A program made the position numbers and the translations under genes. Shown one piece after another: positions 49,939 through 57,949 of a stretch of 64,000 nucleotides of DNA. Within the stretch, counting starts at the first letter, position 1, and every line of letters starts with the position of its first letter. The notes beneath the pieces were generated by a model. The model was not told the origin of the DNA. It worked only from the letters and a program-made list of their open reading frames with translations, and searched no databases. This DNA comes from Ignavibacteria bacterium (lineage in GTDB: Bacteria; Bacteroidota; Ignavibacteria; Ignavibacteriales; SURF-24): NCBI GenBank assembly GCA_025612245.1, contig JAAXKQ010000015.1, forward strand, positions 69,362 through 133,361. Direction: 5' to 3'.

Positions 49939-50011
49939 GCACCCTTAGCTCAGCTGGTAGAGCATCTGACTCTTAATCAGCAGGTCGCCGGTTCGAATCC
50001 GGCAGGGTGCA
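49939..50011 (+). tRNA. tRNA-Lys (anticodon CTT)
   Basis: Manual cloverleaf. Acceptor gcaccct/agggtgc, D-stem gctc/gagc, anticodon loop cuCUUaa, T-arm gccgg-ttcgaat-ccggc. CCA is not encoded. Confidence 0.9.
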
Positions 50012-50015
50012 CTGC

Positions 50016-50173: not shown

Positions 50174-52072
50174 TTAATTTAAGCTTACCTGCGTACCCGC
50201 CTCTTCGGCAGGAGCTTCACCGCTTGGTCCGGCTTCAGCTCCTTTCGGCAGCTTATCCTTTATAATCATCGCAAGAAGAGTATTCACAAGCGAGTTTCCA
50301 TCTGCTCCGCTTCCGCTGCCTCCGGCTACAATGTCCGGAACAAGCTTAAATCCGCTCGTGGCTAGCGCCTTTGCTACTTCTATTGCCGCATAGTTGCCCG
50401 ATTCCATCGACTTTATCTTCATCGTTATAACGTCAGCTTCAGCCGTACCAACAGCCTTGATCTTATCTCCCTCGGCAGCACCTACGGTCTTTAATACCAT
50501 TGCATCTGCTTCGGCATTGATCTTCTTCGATTCTGCCGTACCGCCTGCACTCTTTACAGCCGCCTGCGCTTCAAATTCGCTGATCTGCACTTTACGTTCC
50601 GCATCAACTACCCTCGCCTGCGTATCGGCAAGTGCCCTTGCCTGCTGAAGCTCCTTGCGCGTATCTTCCGCAAGCCGCTGTGTATCGTAAGTAACTTTCT
50701 CCTGCTCCGCTATCTTGCGGTCCGTTAGCGTCTTCATGAGCTCTTCCGGCGGCACTATGTCGCCTATTAAAGTATCAACTGCGCCAACGTTATAATCCTG
50801 CAGCGCTCTTGATATGCTCTGCCTTGCGTCATCCTGACGCTCCTTACGGCCTTTGAGGAATTCAATTACATCAGACCCCTGTGCCGTATTGCGGAAGTAA
50901 TTGCCAATTGTGGGCTCAAGCACCTGCGTAACCAGATTCGCCACGCTTCCGAAACGCGCAATTACCTTCGGGGCATCGGTGCTTGGAATGTGTATAATCT
51001 GACTTACGTCAAGACTGAATGTAAAGCCGTCGGAGGAGCGGACTTTAATTGTTGAGAGCTTTTCATCAAGCTTGTGCGATTCGGTTTTGCCGGTAGCCCA
51101 GTTGAGTACTACGTTCGCTGTAGGCACAATCTCTACTTTATGAGTATATGGATTAATAGGATACTTTCCCGGATCAAGCGGCTTAACCCAAACACCCTTC
51201 TGTCCCCTGCTTACAAGATTTCCATGCTTGAATGTTTCACCCGTAACGTCCACTCCCATATCGCCCACATAGGCAATTACAACGCCCACGTTTGCAATAG
51301 GTACGGTAGTCATTTCTTTGATTTCTACTGTTGCAAATCTTGGATTGATGTAATAACGCCCGGCCAGAATCACCTGCTCCTGAAGTCCCTTGTAGCCGCC
51401 GTTATCGAGGAATATCTGCCCGTCCTGGAAGCTGTTATGCCCGGGTATTTCACGGCCTGCAATTTCTCCGGTCTGCAGCGGCAGGCCTTCGCGTGTAGTA
51501 ACAATGCCCACCATATTGTCATCAATTTCAAGCGCCGCTTCTTCAACAACAGTGAATAGTGAAGTATTGATGCGGTAAGTACCCGGCGGAATAATGGTAA
51601 TTTGCGGACCGCGTTCGCCTCCGTTAAGAAGGAAGTCGCGTGCGCTCTGGAATGAATCGCAGTTCACCTTCTTGGCAAGCACGCGTCCGTCCTTAAGAGG
51701 ATGACCGTCCCTTGCCTCAACGATGCCGATATTGCCTTCTTTGATGTTGATGAATTTCTGTTTGGTAACTTCATACTGCCAGGGCCAGAGCCAGAAATGG
51801 AGCCCCGGCGCAAGAGTATCTGCCTGGTAGCCGGCCTCGCCATTCAGTGCTATAATAGCCCCGTCGGGGAGCATGCGGTGTTTGCCCAGAAGTACGAACT
51901 TTTTATTAACAATGCCTATTGAGTCTTCAGGAATAATAACAATTCCGAAGAATCGTAAAATCAATTTGTTGGCTACTATGAGAAGAATAATAACTATAAT
52001 CCACCAGTAGCTGCCCAGGAAATTTGCCAGTCCCACGTTGCGGCTCCTATAATTGTGATAAAAATACGACAT
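50174..52072 (-). CDS. flotillin family (SPFH/band-7) membrane protein
   Basis: N-terminal TM, SPFH domain, C-terminal Ala/Glu-rich coiled-coil flotillin repeats. 632 aa. Confidence 0.8.
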   Translation of the reverse strand: MSYFYHNYRSRNVGLANFLGSYWWIIVIILLIVANKLILRFFGIVIIPEDSIGIVNKKFVLLGKHRMLPDGAIIALNGEAGYQADTLAPGLHFWLWPWQYEVTKQKFINIKEGNIGIVEARDGHPLKDGRVLAKKVNCDSFQSARDFLLNGGERGPQITIIPPGTYRINTSLFTVVEEAALEIDDNMVGIVTTREGLPLQTGEIAGREIPGHNSFQDGQIFLDNGGYKGLQEQVILAGRYYINPRFATVEIKEMTTVPIANVGVVIAYVGDMGVDVTGETFKHGNLVSRGQKGVWVKPLDPGKYPINPYTHKVEIVPTANVVLNWATGKTESHKLDEKLSTIKVRSSDGFTFSLDVSQIIHIPSTDAPKVIARFGSVANLVTQVLEPTIGNYFRNTAQGSDVIEFLKGRKERQDDARQSISRALQDYNVGAVDTLIGDIVPPEELMKTLTDRKIAEQEKVTYDTQRLAEDTRKELQQARALADTQARVVDAERKVQISEFEAQAAVKSAGGTAESKKINAEADAMVLKTVGAAEGDKIKAVGTAEADVITMKIKSMESGNYAAIEVAKALATSGFKLVPDIVAGGSGSGADGNSLVNTLLAMIIKDKLPKGAEAGPSGEAPAEEAGTQVSLN

Positions 52073-52467
52073 AGAAACTAGATAATTCCCCGTTAATTAG
52101 CAAAGGACTAAAACTTTTCCAATTCCTTCTCTCTGGCTCTTGGTTCTGTGAAAGCTTCACATGAAGGAATTCTAATAGCCTGATATTCGTCTCCGGCATA
52201 TTTTGAGTCGAAAAGCCAGGGGAGCATTCCCGCCGGGTCGTTCAATAAGTAAGGCAATAATGCCCCCAGACTTTTCAATTGCATCAATTGCTTAATATGG
52301 GTATTTATACCCTTTCAGGTATAGTTTAGGTTAATTATCTTGTTTTATACCTTATTGGGTATAATTTTTGCAAAAACACTTGATATTATACCCGAGGTGT
52401 TCAGCCGAAACTTTCTCTTGAAATTGAAAGAGCAGGAAAGGATAGACATAATAAAAGGTTTACAATA

Positions 52468-53172
52468 GTGGGCCTTTGGGGCAATTTCATTTTAAAGCCT
52501 CCAATGGAGGAATATTTTCAGATGCCGGAAATTGAAGATCTGACAATGCATCTGTCTGAGATGTTAAAAATCAGAACAGCTGAGCATACGTTAATACGCC
52601 TTAATTCCGGTGAGCTTGCTTATTTATCAAAACGCTTCGACCGAACCGCAAAAAATAAACTTCAGCTTAAGGATATGGCACAGCTTACCGGTACTCTTAC
52701 AGAACGTAAATACAAAAGTTCCATGGGAAAAATCGGCAAAACAATACTTAAATATTCAAGCTATCCGAAATTTGACCTCCTGACATTTTTCGAACTCACG
52801 GTGTTTTCTTTTCTGACGGGAAACGCAGATATGCACCTGAAGAACTTTTCTCTTCTTACAAACAACGAAGACGAGGTAATGCTTTCTCCAGCTTATGACC
52901 TGCTTTCAACAAAGCTCCTTATTCCGGAAGATACAGAAGAAATGGCTCTTACGTTAAACGAAAAGAAAAGCAATCTTAAGAGAAGGGATTTTGACACGTT
53001 TGCTGAATCACTTCAGATAAACAGCACGTCTGTAAACAACTCATACCGGAAGTTTTTTAGCAGTGAACCTATGATACTTGAGTTTATCGATAAAAGTTTT
53101 TTACAGCCAGAACTCAAAGAGGCTTATAAAAAGCTCTATTCAGAAAAGATTGAAAAACTTAAAAATCAGTGA
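52468..53172 (+). pseudogene. 5'-truncated HipA-like Ser/Thr kinase toxin gene (C-terminal catalytic half only)
   Basis: AYLSKRFDR, DMHLKNFSLL and SPAYDLLS are collinear with E. coli HipA RFDRR / DGHAKNFS / PFYDIIS. The upstream GAQEK P-loop region is absent. Operator-like palindromes sit upstream. Confidence 0.55.
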
Positions 53173-53610
53173 TAAATTGGTAGTATCTAGAATTTAGTGT
53201 AAATGATTTATAATTCAATCCCGGAACGTAGCCCCGAGGGGCGGACAGCGGAGGGATTAAATTTACAGCGACTCTGGAAGTTAACCAGAGGAATTAATAA
53301 ATTAAATCATCTACAAGGAAGAGAGATTATCTCTCTTCTCTATACAGCTTCCCATGCAAGATTATTGAGCAGGTGGTTCATTTTGACTAGGCCCTCAAGT
53401 TCAAGGTCCTTACTCATTATAAGATTATGCATCTGGGCTATAGCATTGGAATTTGACAGCTCGTATTCAAGATTAGATTCTGAGTCATCAACTACTTTAC
53501 AGGCTTTTCTAATGTACTTCTATGCTTTTCAAAGAAAGCTTTAGCTGAAATTACTTCCTTCTTGTCATTCGGCAGTCAAACACCTCCTTAAGACCAGCAA
53601 GATAATATCC

Positions 53611-53997
53611 TCAGTAATAAATAAGATCCTCGTCTTTTTCATCGAACTTCAGGATATTGCTGAAATAGCTTGAGATGCTATTCTTCATAATAACAGGGTC
53701 CTTGGGCTTTACTAATATAAAGTAGTAGCCCGTTTTTTCTTCTTCATATTCTGACCATTTGCTTATTTCTCTAAAACCACTACAATCAATCAATTGTTAG
53801 TCACTGTTACCTATCCAATAATACCCATGACTGTCTTTTGATGCAATAACCATCCAATGTTCTTCATTCTCAACCCTTGCGATGATAGGATAGCCTGTTT
53901 CCAAAGTTTTGCCTATTGCCATCTTGACTTTGGCTTCCTCTTTAATATCACATACCACCGATTCAAGGTCGAACTTGTTTAAGACACGACGAATCAC
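53611..53997 (-). pseudogene. disrupted ORF remnant (two adjacent same-strand fragments separated by a stop)
   Basis: Track ORFs 53797-53997 and 53611-53793 share a strand and are adjacent. Motifs GYPIIARV...HWMVIASKD...NSD are faintly papain/C39_2-like. Confidence 0.25.
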
Positions 53998-54334
53998 ACC
54001 CGCAGATGTACCATATTTTTTGTGACACTTGCGGCCCTATGGCCCATTTCGGAACTTATCGGAAAGCCTAATACAAGTGCTAAGTGTAAAATGGCGTACT
54101 CCCAGCAATCGCCATAGACTTCCTGGTACTTAAACCATACTAGTTCCCTTCGCTTTTAAGTAAGCGGATTAGTTTTTTAATCATTTCATTTACTCCGATT
54201 AGTGATTATAAGGATTTGCCGGGCTTTCCTTTTACTGACATTCTACTTATCCCACTTTTATCCACAGAGAAAATGAAGTAATATACCAGTACTTTTATAA
54301 AATTTTATGGAGTGGACTTCATAATGATGTTAAT

Positions 54335-54367
54335 CTAAAAATAAAAGGGAGATATACTCCCTTTTAT
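54335..54367. terminator. hairpin terminator at the 3' end of the OLD gene
   Basis: aaaagggagatatactcccttttattta. Confidence 0.5.
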
Positions 54368-56263
54368 TTAGCTCTCAATCTCTGCCTTGACAGTATTAAT
54401 AACCATCGGACGCTGCACAAATTCATTAACTCTTCTTAATATATTACGAAGTTCATCCTGAGGATCCCTAATACTGAGAAGTTCTGGAGTCATGTGCTTA
54501 ACTGCCAAAGCATTAAGCCACTTCTTGCATGCAGATTCTTTTTTCTTTTTATTCTCATCATCTAAGCTATCCCATGAATTTGGTGAATCGCTATTTTCCA
54601 ATAGCTTTTGTGCAGCCATTATTGGAACATCATCAAAATCTCCAAACGCAATAACAACTTCTGGCCGAACCCTTTGAACGGCTGTAGGATGAAGGTAGTT
54701 TTCAATCTCTAACTTGGATAAAATATATGCTTCACAGTTGTCTCTGAGATTAGTTTCATCGGCATTTTTTTTGTATTTGGGTTCTTTAGGAGGTATAGTA
54801 TCCCTGTCATAAATATGAATTTCGGGACGATTAAAGCCTTTCAGCCTACTGGTCCAAAGAGCCAGATTAGATCCCCCAAATGGAATGAATATTACAGAAC
54901 CAGCATTTTCCAGATCTTCAAGGTTAGGTATGTCTGGTTCTGTTTGCGCAAGTACCTTAGATATCTCCTTAAAAAAGTTTATATCATTTGGCCCTTCAAC
55001 GCATAAAAACAACTTAACATCATGATCAGCTAATATCCCAAGATCTTTAATTATTCTTTTAATTGTTTCATCATCATCTTTGTGCAGTATTCGCTTCTTA
55101 TCTGCTGTTTTTTCAATATATCTTATGGAGGAAGATGGTATTAAGCGGGCTAATGTAGGCGTGTGTGTAGATATTATCACCTGGCAGTTAGAATTATGGA
55201 CCAATTCAAACAAAGATTCAAGCAACATAACTTGGTTTGTCGGATGCTGAGAGGTTTCTGGTTCTTCAATCGCATATATAATACCTGGCGAATTCCGCTC
55301 GATAGCCTGTTGTTCTGCCTTAGCCCTAAAAAAGTTAATTAAAATTAATCTTCTGACACCACTACCTCGCTTGTTGACAGGGACCTGTGTTTCATCAGTC
55401 AAACTTACCTTAAATATCTTGTCCCATGCAGAATCCAATACTTTCGGGTTTAACTCACTTGCCAGATCTGGATCCATTTCCTTTAATTTGTCAACCGTTG
55501 CCTTACTTACCTTTTCAACTTTCTCCTTAACATTTTGTATAATTTTATCAAGATCGTGCCTTTGGCTTTCCAAAGCTTCTTTGATTGCGACCTTCATAGG
55601 GTCCTGCGCTTCATTGTCCTGGTCTGTGCTTTCTCTATCAGATTTAAACAATGCAAATAAGGGCATTTCTGATTTAATTTTATCCCACATTCTTTTCTGA
55701 TCTTCATCTTTATCTTTTAATTGTATTCGTTGTTCGGCCAATTCAAGATCTGGAAATGAACTCCATATTTTTTGTCTTATCTCGGCCTTAATTGTTTCCT
55801 TAACATCATCAAGACTTACCCCAATATCCTTTGCCCTTTTTCTTAGCTGTGTAATTGTTAGTTGATATAAATCATTGGCATTATCGATGCTAGGATGCAG
55901 AGAATTGAGATAGACTTCCTTTGGCTTTGGTTTTCCACCAGTATATACTTTCACAACTACTAAATTCCCATTTGAATTTAGTAAATACTCATCCTTAAGA
56001 TCTACTACATTTGTTGCATCAATTATTAATGTTTGCGGCACTTCAGTAAATTCACAAGTGATAGTTATATCATCAGAGGCGGAACCAACGCTGATATCGC
56101 CTTGATCCAAAGAGGTATCATTAAAGAATACATTCATTGCATCTAAAATGGCCGACTTACCCGAATCATTCTTAGCAATTAAAGTCGTAAAGTCGTCAAA
56201 CTCAATTTTGAATTTTTCTTTGTAGCATCTGAAGTTTTCAATGGTTAAGGAAACCAGTTTCAT
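54368..56263 (-). CDS. OLD-family ATP-dependent endonuclease (ABC-type ATPase + C-terminal Toprim), standalone class-1-like
   Basis: N-terminal IENFRCY...KNDSGKS Walker A of AAA_15/21 OLD ATPases. IEEPETSQHP signature-like motif. C-terminal Toprim with CVEGPND and YDRD. Confidence 0.8.
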   Translation of the reverse strand: MKLVSLTIENFRCYKEKFKIEFDDFTTLIAKNDSGKSAILDAMNVFFNDTSLDQGDISVGSASDDITITCEFTEVPQTLIIDATNVVDLKDEYLLNSNGNLVVVKVYTGGKPKPKEVYLNSLHPSIDNANDLYQLTITQLRKRAKDIGVSLDDVKETIKAEIRQKIWSSFPDLELAEQRIQLKDKDEDQKRMWDKIKSEMPLFALFKSDRESTDQDNEAQDPMKVAIKEALESQRHDLDKIIQNVKEKVEKVSKATVDKLKEMDPDLASELNPKVLDSAWDKIFKVSLTDETQVPVNKRGSGVRRLILINFFRAKAEQQAIERNSPGIIYAIEEPETSQHPTNQVMLLESLFELVHNSNCQVIISTHTPTLARLIPSSSIRYIEKTADKKRILHKDDDETIKRIIKDLGILADHDVKLFLCVEGPNDINFFKEISKVLAQTEPDIPNLEDLENAGSVIFIPFGGSNLALWTSRLKGFNRPEIHIYDRDTIPPKEPKYKKNADETNLRDNCEAYILSKLEIENYLHPTAVQRVRPEVVIAFGDFDDVPIMAAQKLLENSDSPNSWDSLDDENKKKKESACKKWLNALAVKHMTPELLSIRDPQDELRNILRRVNEFVQRPMVINTVKAEIES

Positions 56264-56464
56264 ATTGACTCCCAGAATAGTATGACAAATGAGTTAATAG
56301 TGAACTATATTCGTGTTCGTTTTTAAGCCATTGTTTTAGAGAATGAATGGAATCACTAAGGAATCAGAATATATAGTAGGAAAAGACAGGCCTTGTTCAT
56401 GGTGTCAGAGTATTTTTTAGATCGGCAGTTAAATTAATATTTATTTTAATGTTAAACAAATTAA

Positions 56465-56492
56465 TCGCCGGTTCGAATCCGGCAGGGTGCAC
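56465..56492 (+). repeat. attR-like direct repeat: copy of the 3' 28 nt of tRNA-Lys
   Basis: Identical to 49985-50012 and followed by a related terminator hairpin. Confidence 0.8.
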
Positions 56493-56874
56493 CAGAAAGC
56501 TTCCGTTCCGCAAGAATTTCGAAGCTTTTTATTTTTATCCTGCGCCGTAGAATTAGATAAGCCCCTTACAACTGCCATGAAATGGCCTTTTATGGAAAAA
56601 CCAATGATGATTAACCTGGGGGCATTTTAATCCTTTCTGATACCCTTTATTGCCATGCTTTTTAAATGCCTCGTGCAATGTGGCGTTGAATCGCCCCAAT
56701 TTTTATGATTATACTTTCCTTATCTTACCTTTTGGCATTTAATTATTATTATCTAAATTTGGGAACAAAAATTCTCCATATGCGTTTTTGTTTCCTTAAA
56801 GATAAGTGACAGATCAGAACCTATTAAACTCTTGGCAACACATATAAAACGCGGCTATATAATTGAGGTTAATA

Positions 56875-57720
56875 ATGATTGTAGGTAAAACAATTCAGAT
56901 ATTTCTTCCTGACGCTAACCCCAGAAGCGTTAAAATTGCAGAAATAACCAGCCGGACCGTTCAGGCGATACTAATCCCAAGAACAAAACTGGATTATATT
57001 TTTGCAAGGGAAGAATTGAATAATGTTGGGGTGTATCTCCTCATTGGAAACCCCGATGAAGACGTAAAACCTTTATTATATATTGGCGAGGCAGAAGATT
57101 GCAAAATCCGGCTTAAACAGCATAATGCTTCAAAAGACTTTTGGAATTACGCAATTGCAATAATCTCCAAAACTCACTACTTCACAAAAACCCACATTAA
57201 ATTTCTTGAATCATTCATGTATCAGGAAGCTAAAAGAATTAACAGATATAAACTGGAAAACAGCACTAATCCCACAATGCCTTATGTATCGGAATCCATG
57301 ACGGCAGATTTAATGGATAACTTTGATACGATAAAAATTCTGGTTTCAACGCTTGGGTTTCCGGTATTTGATGAAATAAAAACAGAACAGAAAGCCGATT
57401 TACTTTACTGTAAAGGCAAAGACGCACATGCAACCGGCCAGCTGACCGATGAAGGCTTCTTGGTATTTTCCGGGTCAAAATGCAACCTGAAGGAAGCAAA
57501 TACCCTTCCCCCATGGGCCACAAAAATGCGCAGGAGACTGATTGAAGAAAAAATATTGCAAGTAAAAGATACCGTGATCGAATTTGCTTCGGACCATCTG
57601 TTTGATTCCCCAAGCGCCGCGGCCACCGCCGTTTTAGCGAGAAATGCAAATGGATGGATAGAATGGAGATATAAGAACAGAAAAACTCTGGATGAAGTAA
57701 AAAGGCAGATTAAAGTATAA
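56875..57720 (+). CDS. GIY-YIG nuclease domain protein with C-terminal DUF4357-like domain
   Basis: GVYLLIGN...LLYIGEAEDCKIRLKQH...N matches GIY-(10)-YIG...R...H..N spacing. C-terminal NGWIEWRY motif. AT-rich like the adjacent island. Confidence 0.65.
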   Translation: MIVGKTIQIFLPDANPRSVKIAEITSRTVQAILIPRTKLDYIFAREELNNVGVYLLIGNPDEDVKPLLYIGEAEDCKIRLKQHNASKDFWNYAIAIISKTHYFTKTHIKFLESFMYQEAKRINRYKLENSTNPTMPYVSESMTADLMDNFDTIKILVSTLGFPVFDEIKTEQKADLLYCKGKDAHATGQLTDEGFLVFSGSKCNLKEANTLPPWATKMRRRLIEEKILQVKDTVIEFASDHLFDSPSAAATAVLARNANGWIEWRYKNRKTLDEVKRQIKV

Positions 57721-57949
57721 AAGGGGACTCGTTTACCCTCCTTGCCCCCTGCTTCTTTATTACAGTAATTTTTAGCCTAAACACGGTAATATTTGCCTTC
57801 AAACGGTAATCCTAACTGCCGTTCCTTACCCCATATTCATTCCGTGCCATGCATAATTTTCAGCAAAAACTTTTTTATGCCTCATCGGGTATAATAACGG
57901 TTCTGCCGCTTCTCCTTGCCTCCAACCGGAGCCCTCCTGCCCCCTTCCT

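Follow-up and report, generated by a model that had tools for sequence, protein, structure and literature searches.

A truncated hipA-like gene in an Ignavibacteria bacterium is very probably (about 90%, as judged from sequence comparison) the dead remnant of a Legionella-type HipBST operon, in which hipB encodes a repressor, hipS an antitoxin and hipT a kinase toxin. The gene lies in a 64,000-nt stretch of assembly GCA_025612245.1 (contig JAAXKQ010000015.1, positions 69,362-133,361 of the forward strand), which we refer to as the window. Judged against homologous operons of other genomes, the best of which is 80% identical in amino acids and 77.5% identical in nucleotides, a single deletion of about 784 bp would have started midway through the promoter-proximal operator and ended at hipT codon 62. 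Such a deletion would have removed the right arm of operator 3 with a TATAAT-like element, the leader, the whole of both hipB and hipS, and hipT codons 1-61. It would have left a pair of complete HipB operators, one half-operator and the hipT body.

The hipT body and its missing N-terminus

The hipT remnant occupies 52396-53172 on the + strand. It corresponds to residues 62-319 of P0002, the closest full-length relative (319 aa, 80% identical to the window frame), and runs uninterrupted to the stop codon. Its frame opens at 52384, after a TGA at 52381-52383, and reads YYTR-GVQPKLSLEIE.... When aligned to P0002, hipT homology begins exactly at GVQPK and 61 N-terminal residues are missing; the alignment to full-length homologues that the first-pass annotation had asked for thus fixes the truncation point at residue 62 of P0002. 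No counterpart of P0002 residues 1-61 was found in the window by alignment, tblastn or BLASTN, and the locus does not encode a full N-lobe. The loss had been described as that of the N-terminal half. A truncation of 61 codons is present, but it falls short of half a protein whose relatives are only 311-320 aa.

The longest ORF with a canonical start runs from a GTG at 52468 to 53172 (+ strand, 234 aa) and was also called as a gene by JGI. It matches Pfam HipA_C (E 9.1e-39, profile positions 22-203 of 213), and the catalytic and Mg-binding motifs GNADMHLKNFS and SPAYDL are invariant with the relatives in our alignment. The HipA catalytic core proposed for this ORF is therefore borne out. Among solved structures, the remnant matches HipT(Lp) residues 56-308 with an E value of 2.9e-47, HipT of E. 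coli O127 with 4e-10, and HipA structures at only about 1e-5 over roughly 90 residues. For P0002, the nearest solved structure is likewise HipT(Lp, Lpg2370), with an E value of 1e-53.

The P-loop had been reported as lost together with the N-terminus. Its GVQPK codons in fact survive in frame at 52396-52410, but no ATG, GTG or TTG follows the TGA at 52381-52383 before the GTG at 52468, and a product started at that GTG has neither the P-loop nor anything N-terminal of it. A translatable P-loop of the form S-x-x-G-V-Q-x-K, in which the Ser is autophosphorylated and the Lys essential, is thus absent for want of a start codon, and the Ser/Thr positions ahead of the P-loop Gly have been replaced by the junction-derived YYTR. 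In HipT(Lp), the P-loop is 53-MSVQGVQKK-61, and mutation of its lysine (K61, Lp numbering) abolishes toxicity (PMC9325769). The P-loop codons of the window copy would be out of reach of any canonical start codon. Because the P-loop and its lysine are missing from the GTG 52468 translation, we infer that any protein made would start at this GTG, lack the ATP-binding P-loop and be non-toxic.

The 258 retained hipT codons contain zero stops and zero frameshifts, and all catalytic motifs are present. These data suggest either that the deletion is recent or that the remnant is under some constraint. At two Glu positions shared by all of 83 relatives, the window copy has a private replacement, Lys at nt 52669 and Gly at nt 52726. 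A count of such replacements over conserved columns, made to look for relaxed constraint, gives 2 for the window copy, a number that four intact relatives reach as well. The deletion may thus just be a recent one, a reading compatible with both the intact codons and replacement counts within the range of intact relatives.

A conserved, predicted operator array of the hipBST family

We used the 262-aa open frame of the remnant as a query against 5.8 billion proteins. Leaving out the window's own protein, most of the 119 closest relatives measure 311-320 aa and carry no domain but HipA_C; the intact ones are about 315 aa. They differ from canonical HipA, which is about 440 aa, carries a fused HipA_N/Couple_hipA and has an adjacent hipB. 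We then compared loci, taking the contigs of the closest relatives (L002, L004, L005 and L007) and 80 further loci from reference genomes. On those four contigs the operon consists of an HTH_3 gene (74 aa), a Couple_hipA gene (about 110 aa) and a HipA_C gene (about 315 aa). Of 75 relatives' loci with at least 1100 bp upstream, all 75 have a hipB-like ORF as first gene and 74 have both hipB-like and hipS-like ORFs directly upstream of hipT. The window locus is the only one with neither. In intact HipT of the Fibrobacterota-Chlorobiota-Bacteroidota (FCB) superphylum, the N-terminus carries a conserved C-x2-C ... H-x2-C (P0002 residues 8-26; alignment columns 8-26), which is deleted in the window; judging by its residues, it could form a small metal-binding knuckle in the kinase N-lobe.

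Upstream of the remnant, the window retains two perfect 18-bp palindromes and part of a third. Operator 1 (52306-52323) is TATACC-CTTTCA-GGTATA and aligns with the first operator of L002, L004, L005 and L007. Operator 2 (52346-52363) is TATACC-TTATTG-GGTATA, with a right arm that continues into TATAAT (52360-52365). Operator 3 survives at 52387-52395 as its left arm (TATACC, 52387-52392) and first spacer bases, TATACCCGA, which align to the third operator of four relatives; the right arm is deleted. Start to start, operators 1 and 2 are 40 bp apart, and operator 2 and the left half of operator 3 are 41 bp apart. The pattern TATACC-N(0-8)-GGTATA occurs 2 times in the 64-kb window, both upstream of the hipT remnant, compared with 0.01 expected from shuffles. 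An extra GGGTAT half-site (52299-52304) abuts operator 1, has no counterpart in the relatives and lies near the left limit of hip-derived DNA; BLASTN matches to the relatives' operator regions begin at 52301-52306.

The first-pass annotation had described three palindromes here. Half-sites do cluster upstream of the gene, but the conserved unit is the 18-bp TATACC-N6-GGTATA, present as two full sites and a left half. Its first palindrome, GGGTAT-tt-ATACCC (52299-52312), is in the sequence but pairs the left arm of operator 1 with the GGGTAT that relatives lack, and its second is real but had been placed about 6 nt off. The likeness to a HipB operator array that it had pointed out is supported: in 73 of 76 loci this 18-bp site, repeated every 40-41 bp, is found shortly before hipB.

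This count comes from a scan for TATACC-N6-GGTATA that allowed at most two mismatches over the 12 arm positions and was limited to the 76 loci in which 1100 bp or more precede the GVQPK codon. At least two sites are present in 68 of the 76 loci, in arrays of 2-4, and spacing between sites is 40 or 41 bp in 127 of 144 cases. Across loci, 218 sites lie in the 1.5 kb upstream and 7 in the 1.5 kb downstream. Three sites about 40 bp apart precede hipB in each of L002, L004, L005 and L007, and the promoter-proximal operator of relatives is located about 25-30 nt before hipB, beside a TATAAT-like element. The ideal form of the clade operator is TATACCCGAAAGGGTATA (L002-L090, e.g. L007:801-898, L018, L021, L041 and L084). 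Loci with the site span ten phylum-level groups, including Ignavibacteria, Bacteroidota, Chlorobiota and Fibrobacteria. In a literature search we found no description of a TATACC-N6-GGTATA operator for the FCB hipBST clade. From their position and the parallel with Legionella, the palindromes of the window and its relatives are predicted to be HipB-type operators. The promoter assigned to the array is putative: a sigma-70 consensus scan at the operators gave nothing convincing, as the spacers there are 14-15 nt.

A lone operator-like site, TATGCCTCATCGGGTATA, is found at 57876-57893 with one mismatch, in the intergenic region between two convergent genes. By our own calculation under a uniform-base model, about 0.14 such one-mismatch sites are expected by chance in 64 kb, and this site is therefore probably a coincidence.

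The closest solved relative of the window fragment is the kinase of L. pneumophila HipBST (Lpg2368-Lpg2369-Lpg2370; PMC9325769, PMC10653801). This system has the hipB-hipS-hipT order common to the window's relatives, which is how the genes of HipBST systems are arranged (PMC8262856). In EMSA, HipB(Lp) bound three operators of 18 nt ahead of hipBST; the promoter-proximal member of the set overlaps the predicted promoter (PMC10653801). L. pneumophila HipBST and the relatives alike have three 18-bp operators, each composed of a 6-nt arm, a 6-nt spacer and a 6-nt arm. The arms themselves differ, TATACC/GGTATA in the window's clade compared with TTACTG/CAGTAA in Legionella O1 (TTACTG-CTATAA-CAGTAA, from an oligonucleotide table; PMC10653801), and so does the phasing, 40-41 bp compared with 53-bp gaps (71 bp start to start). 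Unlike the Legionella operon, the window copy lacks hipB, hipS and hipT codons 1-61. Homologues of HipBST(Lp) reportedly occur widely across the FCB superphylum (PMC10653801), in agreement with the Ignavibacteria and Bacteroidota origin of the relatives.

The two E. coli systems are further removed. HipBST of E. coli O127:H6 (PMC6581861, PMC10627512) is likewise a tripartite split-HipA system, in which HipS is the antitoxin and HipB a transcriptional regulator rather than an antitoxin. Its HipT is a much more distant kinase from the window protein, and the hipBST(Ec) promoter lacks operator motifs of the Legionella type (PMC10653801). HipBA of E. coli K-12 shares the HipA_C kinase fold with the window protein but, unlike the window's relatives, is a two-gene system whose roughly 440-aa HipA includes a fused N-subdomain. 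The K-12 HipB operator is TATCC-N8-GGATA. K-12 HipB is an HTH repressor acting on multiple palindromic operators that overlap the promoter (PMC8262856), and the inverted-repeat arms are five nucleotides in K-12 HipBA and six in Legionella HipBST (PMC10653801).

The probable deletion and its surroundings

Two BLASTN segments define the deletion. The first joins window positions 52332-52395 to positions 971-1035 of L002 (operator region, 80% identity), and the second joins 52395-53175 to 1820-2600 of L002 (hipT, from the GVQPK codons to shortly after the stop, 77.5% identity). The junction is located at 52394-52397: operator homology stops and hipT homology starts at nt 52395, with a 1-nt overlap and microhomology of at most 1 nt. 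Between the two segments there are 784 bp in L002 and 781 bp in L004. In keeping with this, the operators lie 720-1100 bp from the GVQPK codon in relatives compared with 90, 50 and 9 bp in the window. Since the two segments meet at nt 52395 in the window but have 784 bp between them in the closest relative, L002, these data point to a single deletion and agree with the first-pass suggestion of a toxin-antitoxin system in mid-decay. By tblastn, neither hipB nor hipS nor the hipT N-terminus is present anywhere in the 64-kb window, confirming the earlier observation that the locus has no HTH antitoxin gene. An assembly artefact is unlikely, since the same 234-aa protein is found with the same neighbours on 4 contigs and the adjacent orphan ORF is found on 4 contigs from two sources, JGI and Logan.

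By established toxin-antitoxin logic, loss of an antitoxin alone would be lethal or strongly counter-selected. A deletion that disables the toxin as well offers a survivable route to module loss, and this joint loss of antitoxin and toxin function may explain the shape of the remnant. As the 64-kb window encodes no cognate HipB, we infer that the operators are no longer bound and survive as relics, unless another part of the genome encodes a paralogous HipB.

The remnant lies between two perfect direct repeats of 28 nt, both on the + strand, that are candidate island boundaries. The left repeat (49985-50012) is the 3' end of tRNA-Lys(CTT), the right one (56466-56493) is a second copy of this 3' end, and each copy is followed by a similar terminator-like hairpin. 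Together they bracket 6.45 kb that contain an SPFH gene, the orphan ORF, the hipT remnant, an ORF-poor stretch and an AriA-like (PARIS) ATPase; no integrase is present in this interval. The stretch looks like a decayed integrated island, and integrated islands are a common home of toxin-antitoxin modules. ARAGORN reads the second tRNA-Lys copy as an odd tRNA with a 4-nt anticodon (56410-56494), a call that Rfam does not make; Rfam finds only the tRNA. Degenerate chromosomal toxin-antitoxin loci in genomic islands have likewise lost an antitoxin and had their toxin inactivated, and the window locus similarly sits in an integrase-less, tRNA-flanked island beside defence genes. In contrast to such loci, its decay amounts to one clean deletion with a mappable junction and operators that are still perfect.

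Several neighbours were also noted. An AAA_15 ATPase gene (54368-56263, - strand, 631 aa) has first 371 residues that match PADLOC AriA (PARIS) end to end (E 6.6e-65) and C-terminal 260 aa with no Pfam match; on these matches, it may be a defence gene of a fused AriA-AriB type. Immediately beyond the right tRNA repeat, a 285-aa protein (56863-57720, + strand) with GIY-YIG, DUF4357 and RAMA domains matches the PADLOC candidate family PDC-S14 (E 4e-108). The ORF-poor 1.2 kb between the hipT stop and the AriA-like gene (53200-54367) contains a GC-rich nested hairpin at about 53218-53262 and two small abutting minus-strand ORFs (53797-53997 and 53611-53793), which look like one stop-broken gene without a family match. 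Pfam found nothing at 53.6-54.0 kb.

On the other side of the operators lies the divergent 58-codon ORF reported by the first-pass annotation. It is indeed present on the - strand at 52108-52287, with 58 aa from an ATG at 52284 or 59 aa from a TTG at 52287, but it has no link to the hip system. It has no Pfam or NCBIfam match, gives only self-matches in a word-indexed search of 5.8 billion proteins, and has no tblastn match in 169 related loci (89 hip, 80 SPFH-relative). In an exhaustive HMMER scan it produced only weak matches, the best with an E value of 8e-8; these are to giant proteins, at the repeated C-terminal strand of their Big_3_5 Ig-like repeats. We rejected it as an antitoxin, an SPFH partner or a gene fragment, as it has no family or locus match. 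On these comparisons it appears to be an orphan unrelated to the hip module and is possibly spurious. Next to it, the SPFH/Band_7 gene (50174-52072, - strand, 632 aa) has a G+C content of about 0.48-0.53, compared with about 0.35-0.39 for the rest of the island. Soil and peat metagenomes contain many relatives of this gene, with 66-82% identity. Among 80 loci of such relatives, none has hip genes, operators or tRNA-Lys, and no intact ancestral locus for this genomic position was found.

Alternative readings and significance

If the 234-aa ORF were a complete, naturally short HipT-like kinase, its HipS and HipB partners would have to be encoded elsewhere in the genome, as the first-pass annotation had offered. 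All 234 codons and catalytic motifs are intact and JGI annotated the gene, which fits such a protein. However, there is no canonical start ahead of the P-loop, so the protein has no nucleotide-binding loop of its own, relatives are about 315 aa, and hipB and hipS are adjacent to hipT in all but one of the 75 loci and absent from the window. The 784-bp gap relative to the closest relative, with a junction inside an operator, also argues against it. The sole other short match, P0100 (231 aa), starts 19 nt from a contig end, and we rejected it as a naturally short HipT since it is a contig-edge truncation. We consider a short kinase highly improbable. It is more improbable still that the palindromes regulate a divergent minus-strand unit, made up of the 59-aa ORF and the SPFH/flotillin-like gene, and that the hipA fragment is adjacent by coincidence. 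The sites do precede the start of the minus-strand ORF by 15-100 bp, within the shared intergenic region. Yet the same 18-bp site and phasing are typical of hipBST promoters family-wide, and the operator region aligns with the hipB promoter of L002 at 80% nucleotide identity. Furthermore, 177 sites occur in 495 kb of hip loci compared with 0 in 608 kb around the 80 SPFH relatives, and the 59-aa ORF has no homologue near any of the latter. These results indicate that the palindromes belong neither to the orphan ORF nor to the SPFH gene.

A remnant could also have been repurposed, such that the operators and a P-loop-less HipT pseudokinase are expressed and maintained as a sink or target for HipB or HipS of a paralogous or incoming hipBST, and the outcome could be cross-regulation or anti-addiction. 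The intact ORF, the two operators with 0 mismatches and the identical arrangement on 4 contigs would suit this scenario, and the operator is so conserved that HipB of another hipBST locus would probably recognise the window sites. We nevertheless regard it as very unlikely: the remnant shows no sign of purifying selection since the deletion, the promoter-proximal operator has been destroyed along with its -10-like element, two otherwise invariant Glu have been substituted, and the four contigs may be one population. We would give slightly less credence to the narrower proposal that the two operators and the HipT fragment have been kept through interaction with HipB or HipS of other hipBST modules, in the same genome or incoming. 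If true, the remnant could titrate repressor or antitoxin and would be a decoy that modulates the activation of, or addiction by, related HipBST systems.

Read as a dead hipBST remnant, the locus represents a known toxin-antitoxin family as a pseudogene, within what looks like a decayed tRNA-Lys island, and matters little in itself. It is an ordinary dead gene but a tidy example of how a toxin-antitoxin module may be lost safely, with the repressor, the antitoxin and the ATP-binding end of the toxin gone in what would be one deletion whose junction maps to a single nucleotide. The useful by-product of resolving it is the conserved operator of the Legionella-type HipBST clade. TATACC-N6-GGTATA offers a DNA target for HipB binding studies outside Legionella, and the pattern provides a simple way to find hipBST promoters and remnants thereof.
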